Made by a program: the position numbers and the translations under genes
Notes under the pieces: model-generated
The model's input: only the letters and a program-made list of their open reading frames with translations
Databases searched by the model: none
Told to the model about the DNA's origin: nothing
Shown: one piece after another, positions 158-36,954 of the stretch
Layout: each line of letters opens with the position of its first letter
How positions within the stretch are numbered: the stretch's first letter is position 1
Origin: an uncultured Oscillospiraceae bacterium
GTDB taxonomy: Bacteria; Bacillota; Clostridia; Oscillospirales; Ruminococcaceae
Length of the DNA: 44,555 nt
Assembly (NCBI GenBank): GCA_964369435.1
Contig: CAYJGP010000001.1
Coordinates: forward strand, 1-44,555
Direction of reading: 5' to 3'

Positions 158-531
158 AGAGAAAAAAATAATTTTTTTTAAAATTTTTATATTTTTTAAA
201 AAGATGTGTATTTTAAGAGTTTTTTTCTGATTTATGCCAAGAAAATTTGACTTATTATATCGATGTTTACAGCTTTTGGTTGTTTAATTTAGAAATATTT
301 AGCTATCGTTATCTGGTGCCTGTAAGCGGTTTTCACTTCTGTGCAATTTTGATTGTTAAATGTTACCAAGGAGTGAAAGTTTGGATTATGACGGTGGTTA
401 TAAGCTTTAGATTAAGGGTATTGGGTTTGAGGATTTATTTCTAACGTCTGAAGCTTGCATAGTGAATTTTAATTTTTTTAAGGTTTGTTTTAAAGATTTG
501 TTTTTGATTTTTAGATATCTGGGTTTTGGTG

Positions 532-620
532 CGCCGCATCCCCAGAGTCGATTTTGAAAAAATCGACAAAGCGGCATTTATGCCGATAGCCGCACAGAAG
601 TGCGGCCGCTGGGGACGGCG
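532..620. other. GC-rich four-way-junction (cloverleaf-like) inverted-repeat element A
   Basis: Outer stem CGCCG(CA)TCCCCAG at 532-545 pairs with CTGGGGACGGCG at 609-620. It encloses three hairpins: GTCGATTTT/AAAATCGAC (547-567), CGGCAT/ATGCCG (572-585) and GCCGCAC/GTGCGGC (589-606). All pairs are Watson-Crick. GC is about 60% by hand count, in AT-rich flanks. Confidence 0.6.
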
Positions 621-689
621 GGCTTTAAAAAAACTTATAATTGCAGTTGTTGCAACAGTTTAGAATTATTAAATAGTGGACAAGATATC

Positions 690-7535: not shown

Positions 7536-9782
7536 CTAAATCTTTTTAAAGACCTTTCTTATCGTTTTGCCTATTACAGGTGGAAACTGCAGCTTGCTGA
7601 TTATCTTGTACTTAATGCTTCCTTTAATATAAGCAAGCTCATCTTCAGCGGCAAGCAGAAGTGAGCGGTATACGGTATCGTCGGTCGATAGAACACCAGA
7701 AAAGATGCTTTCGATAAACTTTCTATCTTTTATAAACCGCTTTTTCTCGCCTGTCAGGCGATTATAGAGTGCTTTATATTCACTAGCCATATCTGGCAGG
7801 GTTTTGTGTTTATAGTCTTTTAGGGCAGCCTGTTTTTCATTGTACCCTTCGGTATCTTCTATTATAGAGATAAGTTTTTGGTAAATTTCAGAAGCGGAGC
7901 TCTCGATATCCATTAAAAATCCAGCGTTGTTTGCAGTTATCCGCTCGGCAACAGCGCCGATATCAAAAGCAAGCGTTGGGATATTTGCCATCATAGCCTC
8001 AGATAGGGTATAGCTAAATGTTTCCGGCCATATAGAGAAGATGCCAACAAGATCGATATCGTAACTTTGAAGAAGTGAGATAATATCGACACGCATATAG
8101 TTTTCAATCAGACGAACTTTCTTACCCTCGCCTGCGAGCGCTCGTATCTCCTCGTCGTAAACAGCGCCGAATATATAGAAATTTATATCTTTATCTTTGC
8201 ATTTTTTTATAAGAGAAGCTATTTTACCACTGCCCTTGTGGATTGCAACACCACCGATAAATGCGACATTAAATCCGCTTTTATCAGCTCGTTTCGCTGT
8301 TTTATACTCCTCTTGCATTAGACCGTGGTATCTTGCATCTATTTTGATAGAAGGGAAAATCCCATTTATTATATCTGCGGTGTTTTGTGAAGGGGTTATA
8401 ACACTATCAAATCCCTCAAGAAACTTTTTATGCTCATCACGAAATGCTTCAATAATATCGCTCTGTATCCCTTTTTGACGTGAGAGACATAGACTGCATT
8501 TTTCATGGTCGGTAGACGGCCCGCAGAATTTCTTTTCGTCATCAACGCAGTTTATAAGAGGGCAGATAAAAGCAAGATCGTGGATAGTGCAAACTGAGCG
8601 GACACCAAATTCCTTAGCAATATATGGGATATCGAGGGTGTGTCCTGCTGTATGTTGTAGGTGGACAAGGTCGATATCGAAGTTTTTAATAATATCTGAA
8701 ATCATTTTAGAGTAGCTCTGGTTATGGTATTTTAAATCGTAATAGATAAGGAGAGGGAATAAAAACTCTTCGCTACCTCCCTTATGGTATACAGATAGAC
8801 GGTAACCGTCCTTTTGGTGGGAGAGAACAAAGAAGTTATACTCATCTTTCATACTTCTTATCATATCCCAAAGATGCAATGTAACTCCGCCAACGCATCG
8901 CAAATCATCTTCACTATCAATCCATGAGTGAACAATAGCAAGGATATTTTTGCGATCCCCCAAATTCAGCTGCCAACCAACATTTTTGCCGATAACACTA
9001 TTGTGCTTAAATACAACATACTGGCTTGTGTACTGGCGAAGTCTTGGGTAACGTCTGTCGAGAATAAGGCCTGCATCTGCTATGCGCTGGTCTTTATCGG
9101 CACCAAAAGACTGGGTCCCTTTGTGGTAGATAAATGTATCATCAGCGCAGATATTGACAAAACCGTTCTCAATAGCACGGAATGAGAAATCGTTCTCCTC
9201 GCCGTATCCTTTGCCAAAGGTTTTCTCATCAAAATATCCGCAAACATCGAGTGCACGTCGTTTGATAAACATGCAGTATCCGTTTGCAGTTGGTATTTCA
9301 GGGTAGATTTTAAGGGAAGTTTCTTCAATCATCTTCGCATAATCAGAAAGGGATATATCGGCTGGAAGTTCGTTATCCTCGCAAAAATTCGGCACCGAAA
9401 CAAGGGTGCCGTTATTTGTGAGCGGTGTTACAGTTGCTATTTCAAAACGACTGTAAGCAGCGCTTTGTATCTTCGAGACAAAATTTTGTGTTACCTCAGT
9501 ATCGGAGTTTAGAAGGATAACATCATTTTTATCGCTCTCTTTCATACCGCGATTAACGCTTGCTACAAACCCCATATTTTTATCATTTTGAAGCAGTAGA
9601 ATGTTTAAGTCTTTATATGCCAAAACTATCTCTTTTAAATGCGGAAAAACCCTACCTTCAGGGCTTTTATCGTCAATTATAATCAGGCGATTTTTAGTTA
9701 AATCGCCATGTTGTGCAACGCTATCGATACAGGGTTTTAAATAGTCGTACCCGTTATAAACAGGGACTATAATATCAACCAT
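7536..9782 (-). CDS. Bifunctional glycosyltransferase: N-terminal GT2, C-terminal GT-B (GT4-like), and a coiled-coil tail
   Basis: The GT2 part shows IIVPVYNGYDYL...IIIDDKSP...LNSD. The GT4-like part shows PETFSYTLSEAMMANIPTLAFDIGAVAERI. The RBS is AAGGAGA. Confidence 0.85.
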   Translation of the reverse strand: MVDIIVPVYNGYDYLKPCIDSVAQHGDLTKNRLIIIDDKSPEGRVFPHLKEIVLAYKDLNILLLQNDKNMGFVASVNRGMKESDKNDVILLNSDTEVTQNFVSKIQSAAYSRFEIATVTPLTNNGTLVSVPNFCEDNELPADISLSDYAKMIEETSLKIYPEIPTANGYCMFIKRRALDVCGYFDEKTFGKGYGEENDFSFRAIENGFVNICADDTFIYHKGTQSFGADKDQRIADAGLILDRRYPRLRQYTSQYVVFKHNSVIGKNVGWQLNLGDRKNILAIVHSWIDSEDDLRCVGGVTLHLWDMIRSMKDEYNFFVLSHQKDGYRLSVYHKGGSEEFLFPLLIYYDLKYHNQSYSKMISDIIKNFDIDLVHLQHTAGHTLDIPYIAKEFGVRSVCTIHDLAFICPLINCVDDEKKFCGPSTDHEKCSLCLSRQKGIQSDIIEAFRDEHKKFLEGFDSVITPSQNTADIINGIFPSIKIDARYHGLMQEEYKTAKRADKSGFNVAFIGGVAIHKGSGKIASLIKKCKDKDINFYIFGAVYDEEIRALAGEGKKVRLIENYMRVDIISLLQSYDIDLVGIFSIWPETFSYTLSEAMMANIPTLAFDIGAVAERITANNAGFLMDIESSASEIYQKLISIIEDTEGYNEKQAALKDYKHKTLPDMASEYKALYNRLTGEKKRFIKDRKFIESIFSGVLSTDDTVYRSLLLAAEDELAYIKGSIKYKIISKLQFPPVIGKTIRKVFKKI

Positions 9783-11184
9783 TGTTATCTCCTTTTTTTA
9801 ATATATTCTTTATCCCACGAGCTGTTTTATAAGGGAAGCTATTTTCGAATTTTAGAACACGCTCTTTATATAAATTCCGCTGACGTTCCATCTCAGCATA
9901 GTGGCGCTCAAGCTCTGCGTGCATCTCTTCAAGCTCTAATAGATGAGCGAAACTTTGCTCGTGCGTATAGTGGAGGGCAAATAATGCCTCATTTAGCTCT
10001 TTGTTTACGATATCGCTATTTATCTGCGCCTCTAGGGTATCAAACTCATGCCTGTCCTCTATTCCGAATGTCATCAGCAGCTTTTGCAGCGGTATAAACT
10101 GCTCGAGCGCTGTGTTGCCTGAGTGGATATAGAGCCTTGTGATACTGCGATATAGGACAAATAGCGCCGAGACTTCAAAGTTCCATTCTTGATCAATTAT
10201 CTCAAACTCATTATCGACGATAAAAACATTGTCAAAGGTTAAATCATAGAGGGTTGGAAGTTTTTTAATAAGCGAGTAAAACCTCTTAATCTCAGTGATA
10301 AAGCTCTCTTTGCTATCTGATAGAACGAGGTTATAGAGATGCTCGGTAAATGAAATACCATCACTTCTCTTTTGGGTGTACACCCCGTCTAGAATCTCGC
10401 TATCAAGCGTTTTAAGGCCTTTATCTTTTATTATCTTTTCATTTTTTGAAATTGTTTCTATCTGTTGACAGCTGGTAGATGAGTAACAATTTTTAATTAC
10501 CTTATCATTATATAAAGTTGTGGTCACTTTATATTCGTCTTTGCGAAGCGGGGTAAAAGCGCAGAGCAGAGGCTCGTTGCTTATATTAACAGCAAAAAGA
10601 TACCCTGGTAGGAAAGAAAAAGGATTATCACACTTGTTATAGAGGTTATCTTCCCTCGCTGTAAGAACAGAGCCTGCGATATAAACCTGCGGTGCAGTTC
10701 CTATTTCAAGTGGAGTTGGCGGATACTTTTCATTGTATAGCTTAGTTATGAAAATATGGTGAGGGAGAAGTCCGTAGACGGAAATATCGGTGAAGTAGCG
10801 TTGAAGTTCACTGCAAATTTCTTTTTTCGATGGGATATTATCAGAAATAGCTGCAAACGGCGGACGTGAAAACCCACTAGCACCGAGCAGGTTTCTAGCT
10901 GAAACAGGATTTTCTGCTGTTATAAGCAGTTTTCCATCAGCTGGCTGCACTTTTCTTATTTCCTGTATGAAAGCAGATAGTGAGATATTATTTTCGGCTA
11001 AAATCGCCGCGATATCTACAATAGCTATCGAGCTATAACTCTTGCTCTTGTCTAAATCGGAGAATAGGTTACCGAAACTCGAAAAGGTATTTGGAACAAT
11101 ATAAAATACCTCTTCGCCCTCGTTTATAAAAGGGGAAAAGGGGTATTTTATAGTTTCTTTGCAGAGTTTTAGCAGATTTTCCAT
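9775..11184 (-). CDS. Hypothetical protein with a degenerate methyltransferase-like N-terminus, a kinase-like motif and a C-terminal coiled coil (WbdD-like architecture)
   Basis: VQPADGKLLITAENP resembles the late motifs of class I methyltransferases. YDLTFDN...IIDQEW resembles the D-x4-N and IDxE motifs of kinase-like folds. The tail HAELERHYAEMERQRNLYKER looks coiled-coil. ATG at 11184 follows GGAGGTG. Confidence 0.55.
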   Translation of the reverse strand: MENLLKLCKETIKYPFSPFINEGEEVFYIVPNTFSSFGNLFSDLDKSKSYSSIAIVDIAAILAENNISLSAFIQEIRKVQPADGKLLITAENPVSARNLLGASGFSRPPFAAISDNIPSKKEICSELQRYFTDISVYGLLPHHIFITKLYNEKYPPTPLEIGTAPQVYIAGSVLTAREDNLYNKCDNPFSFLPGYLFAVNISNEPLLCAFTPLRKDEYKVTTTLYNDKVIKNCYSSTSCQQIETISKNEKIIKDKGLKTLDSEILDGVYTQKRSDGISFTEHLYNLVLSDSKESFITEIKRFYSLIKKLPTLYDLTFDNVFIVDNEFEIIDQEWNFEVSALFVLYRSITRLYIHSGNTALEQFIPLQKLLMTFGIEDRHEFDTLEAQINSDIVNKELNEALFALHYTHEQSFAHLLELEEMHAELERHYAEMERQRNLYKERVLKFENSFPYKTARGIKNILKKGDNNG

Positions 11185-24427: not shown

Positions 24428-26830
24428 ATGGAACTTAATCTTGATAGAGCAACCCTTAAAAATCTTTTTGAGTATAAGCTGCAGGTAACATACGATAAAA
24501 GATTGACAGACGCAACGAACGAAGAAATCTACAATGTGATGGCGATTACTGTAAATGAGATACTAAACTCAAAAGCAATTCGCTACCGCAATAAAGTGCG
24601 CGACCATAAATCAAAGAGGATATATTATATTTGTCTTGAGTTTTTGGTTGGACGTAGCTTTAAAAACAATCTTTTAAATCTAGGTCTTTATGAAACTTGT
24701 GAGGCTGTTTTAGCCGAGAGCGGGATAAATCTCGAGAAGGTTTTGGACATAGAGCCTGATGCGGGACTTGGAAACGGTGGCCTTGGACGACTTGCCTCTT
24801 GTTTTCTCGATGGAATGGCAACGCAAGGGTACCCAGCTATTGGATATTCTATTCTCTATGAATACGGAATATTTAAGCAAAAACTTGTCGATGGATGGCA
24901 ACATGAACAACCAGACGACTGGCTTGAAAACGGAAGTGTTTGGTTAAATAAAGCAACTGAGGATACTGTTGAAGTGCGCTTTGGCGGTAGAATTGAGGAG
25001 CATTGGAGCGAGAAGCACAATGGCGTTACCCATCTTGATTACCAGAATGTTCACGCAGTGCCGTATGATATGATTATAAGCGGACATAAAACCGATAGCG
25101 TTGCTACCTTAAGGCTATTTAAGGCAAATAGCCCGTCGATTGATATGAATCTTTTCAACTCAGGCGACTATCTAGGTGCGGCGGCGCAAAGCTCTCTCTC
25201 GGAGGCGATTAGTAAGGTTTTATATCCGAATGATAACCACCGCGAGGGCAAAAGCCTAAGACTTCGTCAGCAGTATTTTCTATGTGCCGCATCTATTACC
25301 GATATTATAAAAAGGCATATTGCGGTTTATGGAAAGCTTGAGAATTTCAGCGATATGGTTGCAATTCATATAAACGATACACATCCAGCGCTTGCGATAG
25401 CTGAGCTTATGAGAATTTTAATAGATGAGTGCGGATACAGCTGGGATAATGCGTGGGATACGACTACAAAAACTTTTGCCTATACAAATCACACAGTTAT
25501 GAAAGAAGCTCTCGAGCAGTGGGATATAGGACTTATAAAAGAGCTTCTACCTCGTATTTTCACGATAATTTGTGAGATAAACCGCAGATTTGTTGAAGAG
25601 TGTAGAGATGATGAAGTACCAGAAAGCGCTATTCGCAATATGGAGATTGTCAGTGGAAACAAAATTAAGATGGGTAATCTATCGGTAATTGGTTCTCACT
25701 CGGTAAACGGTGTTTCAAAGCTTCACTCAGAGATTATTAAGCAGTCGGTGTTCCGTGATTTCTATAATCTAAGTCCGTATAAATTTACAAATGTTACAAA
25801 CGGAATTGCATATAGAAGATGGCTTTATCAGAGTAATCGTCCGCTATATGATTTGGCGTGCAAACTCTCAGGTGAAGATGTTAATAAAAATCCACTTGCA
25901 CTTAAAAAGATGGAAAAATTTGCCGACGATAAAAAGGTGCTTGAAGAGATAATCAAGATAAAAAGAGGGGCAAAAGAGCGGTTTGCAGATTTTATGCTTC
26001 GTGAAACGGGTGAAGTGCTAAATCCTGATTCAATTTTTGATGTCCAGGTAAAGAGGCTTCATGAGTATAAGAGACAGCATCTAAATGCTCTGCATATTTT
26101 AGCTCTCTACAATGCTATTAAGCAAAACCCAAATGGTAACTATACCCCAAGAACCTATATTTTCGGAGCAAAGTCGGCGCCAGGGTACTACCTTGCAAAG
26201 CAGATTATCAGATTTATCTGCTCTATTGCAAAGCTTGTAAATAACGATCCACAGACTAAAGATCTGCTAAAAGTTATCTACCTTGAAGACTATTCGGTAA
26301 CAAAGAGCGAGATTTTGATGCCTGCCGCTGATATTTCAGAACAAATTTCACTTGCAGGAACAGAAGCTTCAGGTACAGGTAATATGAAGTTTATGATAAA
26401 TGGTGCTATTACCTTAGGTACATTAGACGGCGCAAATGTCGAGATATACGATGCTGTTGGCGAGGATAATATGATCCTGTTTGGACTGCGCACTGAAGAG
26501 GTAAACGCCCTAAAACAGAGCTACAATCCAATCGATTACTACCGCCAAAATGAAGTTATAAGAAATGCACTCGACTACTGTGAAAACGGAAGTCTTGGAT
26601 ATAACTTCTCAGATATCGTCATAAACCTTAAAAACACAGATCCTTATATGGTTTTTGCAGATTTCGACAGCTATATTGCGGCACAGCGAAAAGTTGCAGA
26701 GATATATTCAGACAAGATGGGATTTGCAAAGAAGAGTCTTATAAACACAGCAAATGCAGGTATATTTGCAGCAGATAGAAGTGTTTCTGAGTATGCTATG
26801 AATATATGGGATGTTGCAGCGCTACATTAG
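24428..26830 (+). CDS. glgP: Glycogen/maltodextrin phosphorylase
   Basis: It has the PLP-site signature EASGTGNMKFMINGA and is 800 aa long. The RBS is GGAGGTGG. Confidence 0.95.
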   Translation: MELNLDRATLKNLFEYKLQVTYDKRLTDATNEEIYNVMAITVNEILNSKAIRYRNKVRDHKSKRIYYICLEFLVGRSFKNNLLNLGLYETCEAVLAESGINLEKVLDIEPDAGLGNGGLGRLASCFLDGMATQGYPAIGYSILYEYGIFKQKLVDGWQHEQPDDWLENGSVWLNKATEDTVEVRFGGRIEEHWSEKHNGVTHLDYQNVHAVPYDMIISGHKTDSVATLRLFKANSPSIDMNLFNSGDYLGAAAQSSLSEAISKVLYPNDNHREGKSLRLRQQYFLCAASITDIIKRHIAVYGKLENFSDMVAIHINDTHPALAIAELMRILIDECGYSWDNAWDTTTKTFAYTNHTVMKEALEQWDIGLIKELLPRIFTIICEINRRFVEECRDDEVPESAIRNMEIVSGNKIKMGNLSVIGSHSVNGVSKLHSEIIKQSVFRDFYNLSPYKFTNVTNGIAYRRWLYQSNRPLYDLACKLSGEDVNKNPLALKKMEKFADDKKVLEEIIKIKRGAKERFADFMLRETGEVLNPDSIFDVQVKRLHEYKRQHLNALHILALYNAIKQNPNGNYTPRTYIFGAKSAPGYYLAKQIIRFICSIAKLVNNDPQTKDLLKVIYLEDYSVTKSEILMPAADISEQISLAGTEASGTGNMKFMINGAITLGTLDGANVEIYDAVGEDNMILFGLRTEEVNALKQSYNPIDYYRQNEVIRNALDYCENGSLGYNFSDIVINLKNTDPYMVFADFDSYIAAQRKVAEIYSDKMGFAKKSLINTANAGIFAADRSVSEYAMNIWDVAALH

Positions 26831-26890
26831 TGGTAGAAAAGCAGCTTAAAAGTGAATGGTTTAGATTTTCATAAATATTAATAGTCAGAT

Positions 26891-26933
26891 AAGCACCTCT
26901 TTTGGGTTTGTAGCCCAGAAGAGGTGCTTTTAT
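26891..26933 (+). terminator. Intrinsic terminator of glgP
   Basis: AAGCACCTCTT pairs with AAGAGGTGCTT, and an inner TGGG/CCCA extends the stem. TTTTA follows. Confidence 0.8.
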
Positions 26934-27006
26934 GGGTTTTGGATGGGTTATCGGTTACAAAAAGGAAAGAAGGTAAAAAGTTTTTACCTAATGAAGAGAG
27001 GATGAG

Positions 27007-27114
27007 GAAGCTTTGCCGGCGCAGCGGATAAACCCACCGCGGTGGGTTTATTCGCGCTATATGCGACTTTGGCGAGTGTTAAGTCTCGCCAAAACGCTGC
27101 GCCGGCAAAGCTTC
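27007..27114. other. GC-rich cloverleaf inverted-repeat element B (MITE-like: 20-bp perfect terminal inverted repeats, flanking GATGAG direct repeat)
   Basis: GAAGCTTTGCCGGCGCAGCG (27007-27026) is the exact reverse complement of 27095-27114. Inside are hairpins at 27029-27050 (a 22-nt perfect palindrome), 27052-27066 and 27068-27093. GATGAG occurs at both 27001-27006 and 27115-27120. Confidence 0.65.
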
Positions 27115-27275
27115 GATGAGCTGTACTTATAGATGAATTTGTTAAAAGATACAAATCGGTTAAACGTTGCGTTTTAACTAAAATTACAACAGCTTATTTG
27201 TGCAGTTTAATTATCCTAAATAATTTCAAAATATGGTATTATTATAGTTAAAGATTTCAAGGAGGGATGTTTGGT

Positions 27276-28211
27276 ATGATAGAATATTTAGCTTGTGGAA
27301 ACGTTATGAGCGATGAAACAATAGAGCCTGGAAGAGAAAAAAGCGATAGACATATGGGAGGCCCTGCTTTTTTTGCGCTTGCTGGAATGAGGCTTTTCAC
27401 AAAGAATGTTAAGCTTGTTTCAAGAGTAGGCCGCGACTTTTACGATAAAGATAGCTATGGCGATTGGATGAAGAAAAACGGCATATCCGATGAGTCGGTA
27501 AGAGTTGAGCTTGAAAACTGCTCATGTTTTCTTCTAGATTATAACGCAGACGGAAGTGGCAGAAATGTTGTATCGGTATATGGGCAAGAACATCTCGGAT
27601 ATATAAAAACAAACCCTGAGGATATAGCGGCAGCTATGAGCAAAGATGTTAAGGGCATGTATATGGCTATGGGGGTAGACAAGGTATTCTGGGAAAAACT
27701 CGCCGCAATTAAAAAGCAATATGGCTTTAAGATAATGTGGGAGCTTGAACACTTCAACTGCAAAAACGATGTTAATCTAATTCGCGATGTCATAGGAGAT
27801 GCCGACGGTTTTTCGCTAAACTACAACGAGGCATCAAAGCTATTTGGAATAGATAGAGAAGACGACCTAGCGATAATAAAAGAGCTGCAAAAACTACCTG
27901 TAGGGTATACGCTTTATAGAGTTGGAAAACGAGGCGCATTCTCGGTAACACCTGATGCTGCTTGGTTCTGCCCATCAATTGATATATATCCGTATGTTGA
28001 TCAAACAGGATGCGGAAACAACTCAACAGGTGCTGCAGGTTATGCGCTAACTGAAGGTTGGAGTCCTGAGATGATAGTTGCAGCGGCAAACGTTTCTGCT
28101 GGATACAACTGTGCTCAATTCGGACCGTTCCCGCACTTTAGCGATGATATAATGAAAGATGGTATCGAGATAATTAAAAAGCAAGCGGAAAAATGCGTTA
28201 AAGTTATATAA
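27276..28211 (+). CDS. PfkB/ribokinase-fold protein, divergent paralog 1 (311 aa)
   Basis: The C-terminal DQTGCGNNSTGAAGYAL corresponds to the PfkB DxTGAGD motif. ATG at 27276 lies 9 nt after GGAGGG and makes the protein colinear with paralog 2. Confidence 0.7.
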   Translation: MIEYLACGNVMSDETIEPGREKSDRHMGGPAFFALAGMRLFTKNVKLVSRVGRDFYDKDSYGDWMKKNGISDESVRVELENCSCFLLDYNADGSGRNVVSVYGQEHLGYIKTNPEDIAAAMSKDVKGMYMAMGVDKVFWEKLAAIKKQYGFKIMWELEHFNCKNDVNLIRDVIGDADGFSLNYNEASKLFGIDREDDLAIIKELQKLPVGYTLYRVGKRGAFSVTPDAAWFCPSIDIYPYVDQTGCGNNSTGAAGYALTEGWSPEMIVAAANVSAGYNCAQFGPFPHFSDDIMKDGIEIIKKQAEKCVKVI

Positions 28212-28214
28212 ATT

Positions 28215-29150
28215 ATGAGTGAATATCTTGCTTGCGGACATATAGTCATTGATGAGATTATCTCTTCGAATGGTGAAAAAAGTCAGTATAATATTGGTGG
28301 CCCTGCATTTTTCGGGCTTGCGGGAATTCGTCTGTTCACGAAATCTGTAAAACTCGTATCAAGAGTTGGACGTGATTTTTACGATAGCGGTGGACATGCT
28401 GATTGGCTTGTGAAGAACGAGCTTTCCGATGAGTCTGTTTTAGTGCGAAGTGAGCATTGCAACCGATTTACATTAACCTATGAAGAGGATGGTTACCGTG
28501 AGATATCAAAATCAGTCTATGGAGATGCAAATCAGGGATATCTTCGGACAAAGCCAGAAGATATAAGCGCAGCGGCTTTCAACAAAACAAAAGGCGTATA
28601 TCTAACTGCCGGTGTTGATAAAATTGTTTGGCAGAAACTCTATGATATAAAGCAAAAATTTGGTTTCAAAATAGGTTATGAACTCGAGCACTGGAACTGT
28701 AAAAACGATATCGGTAGAATTTGTGATATTATCCCTCTATCCGATCTGTTCTCGGTAAACAAACACGAAGCATCACTGCTTTTTGATATACCTGCAAATG
28801 ATGATAAGCGAATAATTGAGAGACTTATCCGTCTGCCCTCAAAATGTATTTTGTACAGGGTAGGAAGCAGAGGTAGTTATATTTTGAGCGATGGACGGGT
28901 TTATTTCTCGCCATCTGTAAATGTTTTACCGTTTGTAGATGAAACGGGATGCGGCAATACGGCGGTAGCGGCAGCTACCTATGCGCTGTGTGAGGGTGAG
29001 CATTCACGCTCTATTGTTACAACTGCAAACATTGCGGCATCTATCTGCGCAGCAGCGGAGGGGCCATACCCTTATATCTCCGATGAGATAATGAGGTTTG
29101 CAAAAGAAGAAGTTAATAACCACATTTCAAAATGTGTGGAAATAAAATAA
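28215..29150 (+). CDS. PfkB/ribokinase-fold protein, divergent paralog 2 (311 aa)
   Basis: It aligns without gaps to the upstream gene, with roughly half of positions identical by eye. Shared blocks are EYLACG, GGPAFF.LAG.RLFTK.VKLVSRVGRDFYD and DETGCGN. Confidence 0.7.
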   Translation: MSEYLACGHIVIDEIISSNGEKSQYNIGGPAFFGLAGIRLFTKSVKLVSRVGRDFYDSGGHADWLVKNELSDESVLVRSEHCNRFTLTYEEDGYREISKSVYGDANQGYLRTKPEDISAAAFNKTKGVYLTAGVDKIVWQKLYDIKQKFGFKIGYELEHWNCKNDIGRICDIIPLSDLFSVNKHEASLLFDIPANDDKRIIERLIRLPSKCILYRVGSRGSYILSDGRVYFSPSVNVLPFVDETGCGNTAVAAATYALCEGEHSRSIVTTANIAASICAAAEGPYPYISDEIMRFAKEEVNNHISKCVEIK

Positions 29151-31152: not shown

Positions 31153-31248
31153 GAATAGCGACTGTTTTAGGTGAAAACCAAAAACAAGATAGATAAATTT
31201 ATCAAAAAGTTGTCTTATAACGACTACTGATAAATAAATATTTCAATA

Positions 31249-31287
31249 AACAGATATGAGTTATTTAATTCATATCTGTTTTCTTAT
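31249..31287 (+). terminator. Intrinsic terminator of the PfkB/SIS/BtpA operon
   Basis: AAACAGATATGA pairs with TCATATCTGTTT, followed by TC-TTAT. Confidence 0.7.
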
Positions 31288-31353
31288 ATAAATAAATCAA
31301 ATATTAAATCTTTAATATTCTCTTAATGTTTACAGTGAAAAATGTTAGCACTC

Positions 31354-31382
31354 TTGAAAATTCATGTAAACAGTGTTATGAT
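31354..31382 (+). promoter_or_regulatory. Sigma-70-type promoter of the ABC operon
   Basis: TTGAAA-N17-TATGAT. A copy of ATGTAAACAGTG lies in the spacer. Confidence 0.5.
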
Positions 31383-31470
31383 AATTTAGTGATAAAATTC
31401 GGAAAATTTAGTAAATAAGAGTGAAACATAATTTAGCTTTTTACACACTAGATATAAAAGGGGTGAATAG

Positions 31471-34982: not shown

Positions 34983-34996
34983 AAGTTAGTTTATAT

Positions 34997-35026
34997 AAAA
35001 AGCGATGTGATTACACATCGCTTTTT
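34997..35026 (+). terminator. Intrinsic terminator of the ABC operon
   Basis: AAAAAGCGATGTG-ATTA-CACATCGCTTTTT. Confidence 0.85.
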
Positions 35027-35138
35027 ACTTTTGTTTAAGGTTAAATTTATTTTGTTTTCTCTACACTATCGAGTAACAACTTTAAGTTTTGCATCTTTTG
35101 AGTATAAGAGTTTTTTGATAAAGGTATAGAGGCTAGGG

Positions 35139-35233
35139 CACTGCCCGCCCGCTATGGCGAACTTTCAGTTCGCCGTTGTCGAGCGAGACTCGACCAAACG
35201 CACTTTTAGTGCGTTTATTGCGGGCGGGCAGTG
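35139..35233. other. GC-rich four-way-junction (cloverleaf-like) inverted-repeat element C
   Basis: The outer 14-bp perfect stem CACTGCCCGCCCGC/GCGGGCGGGCAGTG encloses three perfect hairpins with 5-nt loops: GGCGAAC/GTTCGCC (35156-35174), GTCGAG/CTCGAC (35178-35194) and AAACGCAC/GTGCGTTT (35196-35216). GC is about 59% by hand count. Confidence 0.65.
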
Positions 35234-35298: not shown

Positions 35299-35329
35299 TA
35301 TATCGAAAATCGATATCGCATTTCGATAT
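35291..35329 (+). promoter_or_regulatory. Array of ATATCG/CGATAT half-sites (putative PadR operator) overlapping the -10 box and transcription start
   Basis: GATATC sits at 35291-35296. ATATCGA-AAA-TCGATAT spans 35300-35316 and ATATCG-CATTT-CGATAT spans 35313-35329. Confidence 0.55.
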
Positions 35330-35662: not shown

Positions 35663-36900
35663 GTTCGAAGATACAAAAAGATATTTTAAGAGACTTTCAA
35701 GTAAAGAAATTTTGTCTTTATGGATTTCTAAAAAACTTGAAGTTTTTTGAGCCGTATTTGATAATCTATCTGATGAGCAAAGGTATTAACCTTTTTCAGT
35801 TGGGTATATTGATTGCAGCTCGAGAGGTAATTGTGAATATTTTCGAGATTCCCTCAGGGTTTATCGCAGACTATTTCGGAAGAAAAAAAGAGTTATATTT
35901 TTGTTTTGGATTTTATATAGCTTCGTTTGTTTTTTTCTTTTTAACAAACGGTTTTTTTCTCGCAACGTGCGGTATGGTATTCTTCGGGCTTGGAGAGGCA
36001 TTTCGCTCGGGAACGCATAAGGCGATGATATATTCATACTTAGATGAAAAAGGTTGGCAAGATGAAAAGACATTTGTATATGGTAGAACGAGGTCGTTTT
36101 CGCTTATTGGAAGTGCGCTCAGCAGCTTAGTAGGAATTTTTTTAATCCTTGCAGTTCCTTCAGATAGCTATATATTTCTCTTTTCGGTAGTGCCATACAT
36201 ATTAGATTTATTTCTTATAATGAGTTACCCTGCCTTTTTAGATATTGCCGATAAAAAGCACGAAATGACTATCAAAGAGATGGCAACGGCACTTTTTCAA
36301 AGTTTCAGATTAAATATAAATCTCAGAAACCTGTTAGTTGAAGAGGGGATGTCGGAGGCTGCCTTTTCATACGTAAAGGATTTAATTCAACCGATTATCG
36401 AGGCAATAATCGTCACAAGTGGGTTTGTGGTGATAACATCGGTAACGGTTGAGGATAATCTAAAAATCGTACTGGGTCTTACCTATGCAATTCTAAATAT
36501 TGTCGGCTCCTATTTTTCAAAAAAAGCATACATTATTAAAGGGTCAAGAACAAGTGCTAACTGCTTGTTTATCGCACATATTGGATACAGCGCACTCTTT
36601 TTATTACTAGCGCTTTTCACGAAGATGTATATAATTGTTTTTGTATTATATCTGTTTATCTTTATATTAAACAACGTTCGCAAACCAATATTCGTTGATG
36701 AAATAGATAACAACATAGAAAAATCAAGTAGAGCGACGATTATAAGCGCCTCGGCACAGCTAAAGTCGTTATTCCTTATGGTATTTGCACCAGTTCTGGG
36801 TTTTGTAGCAGATAAAACCGGATTTAGTTTGGTTATGGTTATACTGGCAATTATTTTTGCAATAACAATACCACTGCTTTTGCGAAAATCAAATGGTTAA
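35659..36900 (+). CDS. MFS-type transporter
   Basis: It has about 12 TM segments, a loop GRKK motif after TM2, and an ATGA overlap with padR. Confidence 0.8.
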   Translation: MSSKIQKDILRDFQVKKFCLYGFLKNLKFFEPYLIIYLMSKGINLFQLGILIAAREVIVNIFEIPSGFIADYFGRKKELYFCFGFYIASFVFFFLTNGFFLATCGMVFFGLGEAFRSGTHKAMIYSYLDEKGWQDEKTFVYGRTRSFSLIGSALSSLVGIFLILAVPSDSYIFLFSVVPYILDLFLIMSYPAFLDIADKKHEMTIKEMATALFQSFRLNINLRNLLVEEGMSEAAFSYVKDLIQPIIEAIIVTSGFVVITSVTVEDNLKIVLGLTYAILNIVGSYFSKKAYIIKGSRTSANCLFIAHIGYSALFLLLALFTKMYIIVFVLYLFIFILNNVRKPIFVDEIDNNIEKSSRATIISASAQLKSLFLMVFAPVLGFVADKTGFSLVMVILAIIFAITIPLLLRKSNG

Positions 36901-36904
36901 AAAC

Positions 36905-36934
36905 AAAAAACGATGTGTTAACACATCGTTTTTT
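36905..36934. terminator. Bidirectional intrinsic terminator shared by the MFS gene and the convergent yfhO-family gene
   Basis: AAAAAACGATGTG-TTAA-CACATCGTTTTTT. Confidence 0.85.
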
Positions 36935-36954
36935 GTTTTGTGCATGAGTATTAA

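Follow-up and report, generated by a model that had tools for sequence, protein, structure and literature searches.

A GC-rich cloverleaf element between glgP and a PfkB operon of an uncultured Oscillospiraceae bacterium, and the small fold-defined family to which it belongs

The REPINs of bacterial genomes are extragenic sequences that fold as single-stranded DNA (ssDNA) and in which compensatory changes on both sides of a hairpin are common (PMC3116915), and the REP/REPIN elements persist vertically for long periods and have been proposed to be mobilised by the RAYT (TnpA-REP) HUH transposases (PMC3116915, PMC8266576). Here we compare with those and other systems a 108-bp element, designated B, which is located between glgP and a PfkB-PfkB-SIS-BtpA operon in a 44,555-nucleotide stretch of DNA—the window, in what follows—from an uncultured Oscillospiraceae bacterium (assembly GCA_964369435.1, contig CAYJGP010000001.1, positions 1 to 44,555), and which had been noticed in a previous inspection of the letters only, hereafter the sequence-only reading. 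B belongs to a small dispersed family that is defined by its fold: GC-rich elements of ~86-108 bp in which a closing stem of 10-20 bp surrounds three hairpins, which layout amounts to a four-way junction that either strand can form. The reading that we prefer, and to which we give somewhat less than an even chance, is that this family constitutes a structure-defined, REPIN- or MITE-like dispersed repeat (MITE, miniature inverted-repeat transposable element) that would spread rarely as folded ssDNA and would be maintained at the level of DNA.

The four-helix fold of element B and its companions

The 108-bp element, its 20-bp arms, its three hairpins, and the GATGAG copies on both sides, as described in the sequence-only reading, were all found in their places (Table 1). 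The 5' arm of the closing stem, GAAGCTTTGCCGGCGCAGCG, is followed after 68 nt by its exact reverse complement (100% complementarity in the inverted-repeat finder), and the entire stretch from one GATGAG to the other consists of GAAGCTTTGCCGGCGCAGCG, GA, TAAACCCACCGCGGTGGGTTTA, T, TCGC-GCTATAT-GCGA, and C in its first half, and of TTTGGCGAG-TGTTAAGT-CTCGCCAAA, A, and CGCTGCGCCGGCAAAGCTTC in its second. The GC content, formerly counted by hand as about 57% in AT-rich DNA, was 0.57 in the element versus 0.394 in the window. When B was folded as RNA, the minimum free energy (MFE) was -77.0 kcal/mol for the plus strand and -74.5 kcal/mol for the minus strand, with z scores of -11.4 and -12.7 and none of 200 shuffles being as good; when folded as ssDNA with DNA parameters, the two strands gave -51 and -50 kcal/mol (z scores of -13.0 and -12.6). 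For the 20-mer arm, the expected number of matches in shuffles of the window was zero. The structure of B is far beyond chance. That every pair is Watson-Crick was also correct as regards the four helices; some MFE folds contain one or two G-T pairs, which are opportunistic pairs at the junction.

Two more elements with that architecture and a different sequence had been pointed out in the window, and this observation held for A and C, both of which adopt the same closing-stem-plus-three-hairpin layout on both strands (z scores from -5.8 to -9.5). To express the layout as a rule, we used a strict descriptor—a perfect closing stem of at least 7 bp and three consecutive perfect hairpins of at least 4 bp, with loops of 3-9 nt and junctions of 0-5 nt—with which 123.6 kb of DNA from the genus (~118 kb non-redundant) were scanned. 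Exactly five matches resulted, namely A, B, and C in the window, D in the third genome of the genus, and C' in the sister species, against a mean of 0.2 matches per replicate in 20 shuffles that kept the local composition. The MFE scans and an MFE-based multiloop detector singled out the same loci as isolated outliers, at -58 to -77 kcal/mol per 120 nt; the next-best stretches were at -47 kcal/mol or weaker and, in the window and in two loci of the relatives (L012 and L013), lay inside called genes or long open reading frames. No match to the descriptor came from 106 kb of control DNA, made up of unrelated loci and of GC-rich relatives; the distant relatives at 59-62% GC (L007-L011 and L016) have no match, and the energy scans there are uninformative.

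The core of A comprises a 7-bp stem and hairpins of 9, 5, and 7 bp, and the hairpins of C are GGCGAAC/GTTCGCC, GTCGAG/CTCGAC, and AAACGCACT/AGTGCGTTT. The perfect closing arms extend over 20 bp in B, 14 bp in C and D, and 11 bp in C', and the shortest hairpin is the middle one in every element of the genus. C' folded with -65 and -70 kcal/mol on its two strands (z scores of -8.6 and -9.2), whereas the ssDNA folds of A, B, C, and D had z scores from -7 to -13. A sixth element, E, was encountered in an outgroup species from a neighbouring genus (AspRS 64% identical, ~51% GC, from JGI metagenomes); its z scores were -6.8 and -7.2, it has no sequence similarity to A-D, and it is identical in three strains except for a difference in the length of a homopolymer. 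As RNA and as ssDNA alike, one strand folds as well as the other. Because the fold is all that the copies share, repeat finders based on sequence would miss this family.

Table 1. Positions of the elements, of the parts of B, and of two neighbouring features (window coordinates unless a locus is named)
Feature	Position	Strand	Description
Element A	532..623 (approx.)	.	imperfect outer closing stem; perfect core 539-615
Element B	27007..27114	.	108 bp; direct reading, inverted-repeat finder, RNA/ssDNA folding
B helix P1 (closing stem)	27007-27026 with 27095-27114		20 bp, perfect
B helix P2	27029-27050		22-nt perfect palindrome
B helix P3	27052-27066		TCGC/GCGA, 4-bp stem
B helix P4	27068-27093		TTTGGCGAG/CTCGCCAAA, 9-bp stem
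GATGAG, left copy	27001..27006	.	abutting B
GATGAG, right copy	27115..27120	.	abutting B
Element C	35139..35233	.	95 bp; 14-bp perfect closing stem and three hairpins
Element C' (ortholog of C)	L014 1640-1725		sister species, GCA_964369635.1
Element D (homolog of C)	L012 150-238		third genome, GCA_964370465.1
Element E	L017 2169-2260		outgroup species, neighbouring genus; 10-bp closing stem and three hairpins
Terminator-like hairpin after glgP	26886..26934	+	21-nt arms, 86% complementary, then TTTTAT; repeat finder
Conserved promoter-proximal block upstream of pfkB	27193..27260	+	alignment with sister species; promoter call inferred from sequence

Dispersal, retention, and pair evolution

The searched databases contained only two further genomes of the genus, the next homologs of AspRS and PfkB being 65% and 58% identical, respectively. 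In the sister species (GCA_964369635.1; loci L006, L014, and L015), the genes that flank the glgP-pfkB spacer have 80-85% DNA identity to those of the window; its contig ends inside the flagellin gene, which end places the locus of A outside the comparison. In this species, C' occupies the locus and has the orientation of C, the FtsX-PadR spacer around it being otherwise unalignable except for the terminator, the PadR promoter, and a palindromic block just 3' of the latter. D, in the third genome (GCA_964370465.1; L012), is homologous on its minus strand to the full length of C (local score of 37 versus 13.5 ± 2.2, reached by 0 of 500 shuffles) and occupies a different locus, whose orthologous spacer in the window (31153-31470) contains no element. 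Since different genomes thus carry sequence of the C type at loci that are not orthologous, it must at some time have been copied to a new site, and the earlier notion of a dispersed family is sustained. Another 21 kb of the relatives' DNA (L013) carried no element.

The glgP-pfkB spacer of the sister species does not contain B as such, and the conservation between the two spacers is limited to ~100 bp adjoining pfkB. The only strong GC island there (L006 9583-9840) aligned with B when the latter was read on the minus strand (score of 39 versus 15.7 ± 2.4 for shuffles) and is bounded by a 19/23 inverted repeat of its own (score of 26 versus 10.9 ± 2.2). This island includes a scaffold gap of 10 N, runs of poly-C and poly-G, and an internal direct repeat (9656-9687 and 9772-9803, 81% identical), and apparently represents a relative of B, degraded or mis-assembled, with an inverted interior. 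That the assembly is unreliable exactly at the element suggests that elements of this kind break or confuse the short-read assembly of metagenome-assembled genomes (MAGs). In view of the retention of C at the same locus in a species with 80-85% identity, and of the diverged B relative in the corresponding B spacer, the perfect pairing should be attributed to maintenance and not to youth, so that the initial proposal of a young MITE was given up.

The surroundings of C' are repetitive as well. A C-rich tract, (TTCCGCCCCG) x 3.7, lies directly upstream (L014 1583-1644) and resembles the 5' arm, and the 3' hairpin half of C' together with its closing arm is duplicated in tandem (L014 1704-1791; 44 bp x 2, 97% identical), which features suggest slippage or template switching at the element.

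For the analysis of pair evolution we had three aligned sequences—C, C', and D—which constitute a modest but fully consistent sample. The alignment contains 37 pairs in four helices, standard-paired in 100% of the cells, as opposed to 32-45% in register-shifted controls. Seven pairs changed on both sides and none on one side only, with at least one such pair in each helix, and neither a G-U pair nor a one-sided change was present in 101 pair cells. Four of the five pair measures were unreached by any shuffle, the fifth—the count of further pair types—being reached by 70 of 500. The loops and junctions of the three sequences vary freely and are not conserved, and all the elements are practically devoid of G-U (G-T) pairs. 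These features, the reverse of those of riboswitch-like RNAs, would be expected if both DNA strands have to fold, or if some templated process homogenises the arms. Therefore, the absence of G-U pairs, the equal folding of both strands, and the two-sided changes in all seven variable pairs of the C family favour a constraint at the level of DNA or of both strands over one on a single RNA strand, as the sequence-only reading had anticipated.

Template switching between the arms of inverted repeats has been reported to homogenise those arms, to invert the spacer, and to create, perfect, and maintain hairpins (PMC8604942, PMC8794818). The elements might hence be a neutral by-product formed in situ, the terminator-like hairpins of the spacers having been elaborated by replication template switching into nested palindromes devoid of mobility and function. 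The partial tandem duplications and arm-like tracts that adjoin C' would agree with such an origin, as would the terminator-like character of the inner hairpins; C and D, however, share sequence over all four helices at different loci, which sharing requires copying to a new site, and the recurrence of three hairpins in the same layout in six independent elements, along with the 6-bp direct repeat at B, likewise speaks against this origin, which we consider decidedly improbable.

The compensatory changes in a stable and conserved four-helix fold could also be those of a family of small non-coding RNA genes, independently transcribed and forming a tRNA-like or Y-RNA-like four-way junction. GC-rich islands in AT-rich genomes are a classic signature of structured RNA. 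Nevertheless, the unpaired nucleotides are not conserved, G-U pairs are missing, no conserved promoter flanks C and C', and the B relative is apparently inverted with respect to the flanking genes. Moreover, Rfam gave no match at the gathering score over the whole window, and nothing usable came out of permissive scans around the five elements A-E. For these reasons, we deem RNA genes a very improbable explanation.

Several particular RNA candidates were discarded. With stems of 14-20, 8-10, 4-7, and 7-9 bp the elements do not fit a tRNA, and ARAGORN reported no tRNA or tmRNA gene in the window. The best permissive Rfam match was that of E to the LOOT RNA (RF03000), at 20.7 bits versus a gathering score of 46.4 and with a different structure; LOOT was not among the matches for B at E <= 10, nor among those for A, C, and D at E <= 1. 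A hammerhead-like reading of the GAUGAG flanks had no support from Rfam, and a retron RNA was set aside, there being no reverse transcriptase nearby.

Position with respect to genes and transcripts, and the weighing of the readings

All the elements are intergenic. The glgP gene (PF00343) that precedes B ends with a stop codon at 26830, B begins 72 nt 3' of the terminator-like hairpin that follows this gene—a hairpin that the consensus terminator scan did not call—and the distance from B to the most likely start codon of the operon, at 27276, is 161 nt, in accordance with the ~160 nt initially estimated. The block that is conserved in the sister species, with the likely promoter, lies 3' of B; consequently, B is outside the pfkB transcript, and a role as a leader or riboswitch of that operon, which had been suggested, is rejected, B moreover not being conserved as such in the sister species. 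A is located ~230 nt beyond the flagellin terminator (887-856, minus strand), C 111 nt beyond the FtsX terminator and 5' of a called PadR promoter (TTGACA-17-TATCAT), and D ~80 nt beyond a canonical terminator and ~255 nt upstream of an ABC-transporter operon. Given that a separate terminator or terminator-like hairpin precedes these elements and that the next promoter—called for C, inferred for B—follows, A-D, the four elements of the genus whose locus was fully read, are situated outside the inferred transcription units, in gene-free spacers. E occupies a 142-nt ZapA-dUTPase spacer, 18 nt past the stop codon and 32 nt ahead of the next start codon; as its two neighbouring genes are co-directional and closely spaced, it is probably transcribed, which circumstance keeps a role at the level of RNA alive.

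Such a role is the main rival of our reading and possibly coexists with an origin at the level of DNA: the elements would be transcribed within read-through or intercistronic mRNA and act as hyper-stable 3' structures—a backup or bidirectional terminator, an insulator between operons such as the sequence-only reading had also considered, an exonuclease block, or an RNase III site—in the manner of REP/BIME sequences in E. coli operons. Each element is directly 3' of a gene end, the symmetric fold could work in either orientation, and one inner hairpin of B, C, C', D, and E has the appearance of a bidirectional terminator, with an A-tract, a GC stem, and a T-tract (e.g., AAAACGCACC...GGTGCGTTTTTT in D), the single inner hairpins of D and E carrying T5-T7 runs and thus resembling a terminator in part. 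A-D, nonetheless, are 72-230 nt past a terminator or terminator-like hairpin of their own upstream gene, with B and C upstream of the next promoter; the consensus terminator scan called nothing within A, B, or C, the three that were in the scanned regions; and the pair cells free of G-U and of one-sided changes are unusual for helices selected as RNA. Furthermore, termination at an inner hairpin would leave the 3' arm of the closing stem untranscribed, yet the closing stem is the best-kept helix. We accordingly judge it unlikely that the RNA-level role is the explanation.

The same symmetry between strands, the Watson-Crick-only pairs, and the conserved fold with free loops might instead denote a site used by the host as DNA, that is, a cloverleaf or cruciform bound by a junction-binding or nucleoid protein, by gyrase as in REP/BIME, or by the priming machinery as in three-hairpin single-strand initiation signals of the G4 type, which site would serve chromosome organisation or replication and would not be selfish DNA. 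This alternative is helped by the occurrence in two genera and by the orthologous retention across species amid unalignable spacer. Its difficulties are that the presence of the elements differs between close relatives, the D locus being empty in the window and the 21 kb of L013 containing none, that no candidate binding protein was identified, and that extrusion from duplex DNA is poor for closing stems with interiors of 60-70 nt; on balance it appears quite improbable.

If the elements are rarely spreading repeats, as we tentatively propose, they would disperse as non-autonomous units upon recognition of the folded ssDNA by an enzyme encoded elsewhere in the genome, as has been proposed of RAYT for the REPINs; the copies would then persist for long at the locus, and the Watson-Crick perfection would be kept at the level of DNA through selection on the fold, through template switching between the arms, or through both. 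Template switching would account not only for the perfect pairing but also for the flipped interior of the B relative in the sister species, and the partial tandem duplications and the assembly gap at the copies of that species speak in favour of this proposal. The family would then be an old one, long-lived at its loci, in a poorly sampled clostridial lineage.

A number of results weigh against that proposal. A, B, and C, all within 44.5 kb, are without significant mutual sequence similarity and have no 16-mer in common, and hence the window holds none of the near-identical copies that are the usual hallmark of active MITEs and REPINs. Nor did the search for the B arm in 185,579 species-representative genomes, by which copies were to be counted, yield a second copy: there were five single-arm matches, one of which, from a Eubacteriales MAG, falls by chance within a coding region of GC-rich DNA, and the remaining four come from unrelated MAGs of other phyla with one arm each, three of them alpha-, beta-, or unclassified proteobacteria. 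No match was obtained with B by blastn against plasmids and phages, with the B/B' pattern in viral contigs, or with the C/D two-hairpin pattern in the JGI metagenome and viral contigs. Among the loci read (~118 kb of DNA from the genus) there is no transposase, RAYT, or recombinase gene, which result extends to the genus an absence already remarked in the window, where, as in the syntenic annotated loci, the scanned proteins also lacked a reverse transcriptase domain. A clean empty site was not recovered, the spacers of the relatives being too diverged, and a conserved 22-mer from the pfkB flank, used for filled and empty sites, had no match in the JGI metagenomes. Retention at orthologous loci across species, finally, fits a host function too.

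The flanking direct repeat is a further point of this kind, as it was present at B alone among five elements, A, C, C', and D being without one; the layout of terminal inverted repeats plus target-site duplication that the sequence-only reading had recognised at B is accordingly not a general trait. The empirical chance of such a repeat is ~6.5e-4 per site and ~0.003 for at least one among five elements; the GATGAG pair, though no family trait, may be a genuine insertion mark of B and to that extent speaks for the proposal. We also compared the outer flanks of the elements (window 520-640 and 27115-27135; L012 135-260). A, B, and D each have ACTTA 10-11 nt to their right, and A and D share GGGTTTT on the left and AAAACTTA on the right, which two motifs can pair as an extra outer helix. 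A common insertion-site motif drawn from ACTTA or from GGGTTTT/AAAAC was judged post hoc, at best borderline, and not significant.

No catalogued family has this architecture, and no Rfam family matches it. A broader interpretation would be that of an undescribed class of four-way-junction DNA elements, specified by structure independently of sequence and distributed over several Oscillospiraceae-like genera, which a dedicated enzyme would recognise, copy, or maintain through the folded junction and not through a sequence motif, be it as new mobile DNA or as a host system acting on ssDNA cloverleaves; this interpretation we regard as improbable. Should the preferred reading be true, structured repeat DNA of the REP/REPIN kind would not be confined to the well-studied Proteobacteria, and would be present in uncultured Clostridia too. 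The family would furthermore provide natural material for asking whether selection or template-switch correction keeps nested palindromes perfect over speciation time, and what enzyme recognises a four-way junction in DNA. The 10-N gap in the B relative and the partial tandem duplication at the C relative indicate, in addition, that such elements could be a hidden cause of the fragmentation and mis-assembly of MAGs.

The remaining genes of the window are housekeeping ones, and the neighbours of the elements include glgP, pfkB, ABC-transporter, and PadR operons. The operon downstream of B is headed by tandem paralogs of PfkB-family kinases (27276-28211 and 28215-29150, ~51% mutually identical), for which the distant relatives L007-L011 have a single PfkB gene ahead of the SIS and BtpA genes. 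In front of it, a 28-bp block (27193-27220, CTTATTTGTGCAGTTTAATTATCCTAAA) is identical in the sister species while the spacers are otherwise unalignable, and is a candidate operator or promoter element of this uncharacterised operon; just 3' of that block, TGGTATTAT (27234-27242) reads as a probable extended -10 box.

Near C, the FtsX terminator (34996-35027) and a perfect 40-bp palindrome between the MFS and YfhO genes (36900-36939) share the core CGATGTG-N4-CACATCG, with zero occurrences expected by chance, so that one and the same terminator hairpin stands on either side of the C-PadR-MFS segment; in L012 and in L014 this core occurs once, at the FtsX terminator. The palindrome ATATCGAAAATCGAT/ATCGCATTTCGATAT just 3' of the PadR promoter (35300-35329; L014 ~1851-1880), conserved in the sister species, is a likely autoregulatory operator of PadR. 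Between the flagellin terminator and A, positions 690-830 form a strongly strand-asymmetric tract of ~140 nt, C/A-rich and with hardly any G or T when read on the plus strand (cccaccccaaccaagccccatcccaaac...), with no obvious coding role, the sole open reading frame across it being a low-complexity one of 91 aa (600-875). In the outgroup, three strong hairpins separate the PFOR gene from an oppositely oriented gene of 98 aa (L017 861-980; L018 431-550), of which hairpins the first is free-standing, a stem of only 4 bp enclosing the second and third; this group may be a cluster of bidirectional terminators or a related multi-hairpin element.

Comparison with known systems

Bacterial MITEs—such as the Correia/CREE/NEMIS elements of Neisseria, ERIC/IRU, RUP, and BOX—are like the present elements in their length of ~100-150 bp, their terminal inverted repeats, their intergenic position, and their stable fold as single strands or transcripts, and the flanking repeat of B resembles a target-site duplication. 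The copies of a MITE within a genome share sequence and match the ends of an autonomous insertion sequence, whereas the copies in the window are unrelated in sequence and no insertion sequence with matching ends was seen. Terminal inverted repeats are present in all, with an imperfect outer stem in A, and a target-site duplication of fixed length does not accompany every copy, the direct repeat occurring at one of the five elements.

The attC sites of integrons are also folded single strands recognised by structure, 57-141 bp long, imperfectly palindromic, and variable in sequence between copies. They differ in having conserved R and L boxes (GTTRRRY), extrahelical bases, a fixed orientation, a cassette array, and an integron integrase; in the present elements, the arms lack R and L boxes, the stem of B has no bulges, and the neighbours are ordinary housekeeping operons. 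The mobile GC clusters of yeast mitochondrial DNA and the Rickettsia palindromic elements, for their part, are GC-rich hairpin palindromes scattered in the spacers of AT-rich genomes, yet they are sequence-conserved families of single or double hairpins in other hosts and form no four-way junction. As to the LOOT RNA, that motif is GC-rich and multi-hairpin and two hairpins of E align with it, its consensus nevertheless being one of four serial hairpins without an enclosing stem.

With the REP/REPIN/BIME sequences there are both more likenesses and definite differences. Those sequences are extragenic palindromes of ~100 bp as doublets, with a predicted ssDNA fold on either strand, and a "clover" alternative fold has been discussed for the REPINs. 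A REPIN, however, consists of two inverted copies of a sequence-conserved REP of 20-40 nt with a GTAG or CGTC tag; here GTAG/CTAC is absent at or within B, C, C', and D, GACG is found only in A, within the 3' arm, and A, B, and C have no common core. Instead of a doublet that forms one long hairpin, a closing stem surrounds three distinct hairpins. The high copy number and the adjacent single-copy RAYT gene that characterise REPINs are traits that none of the loci read here displays, and the hosts are Clostridia, as against the Proteobacteria and cyanobacteria of the REP/REPIN studies considered here. With these differences taken into account, the REP/REPIN elements are still the closest described counterpart of this family in behaviour.

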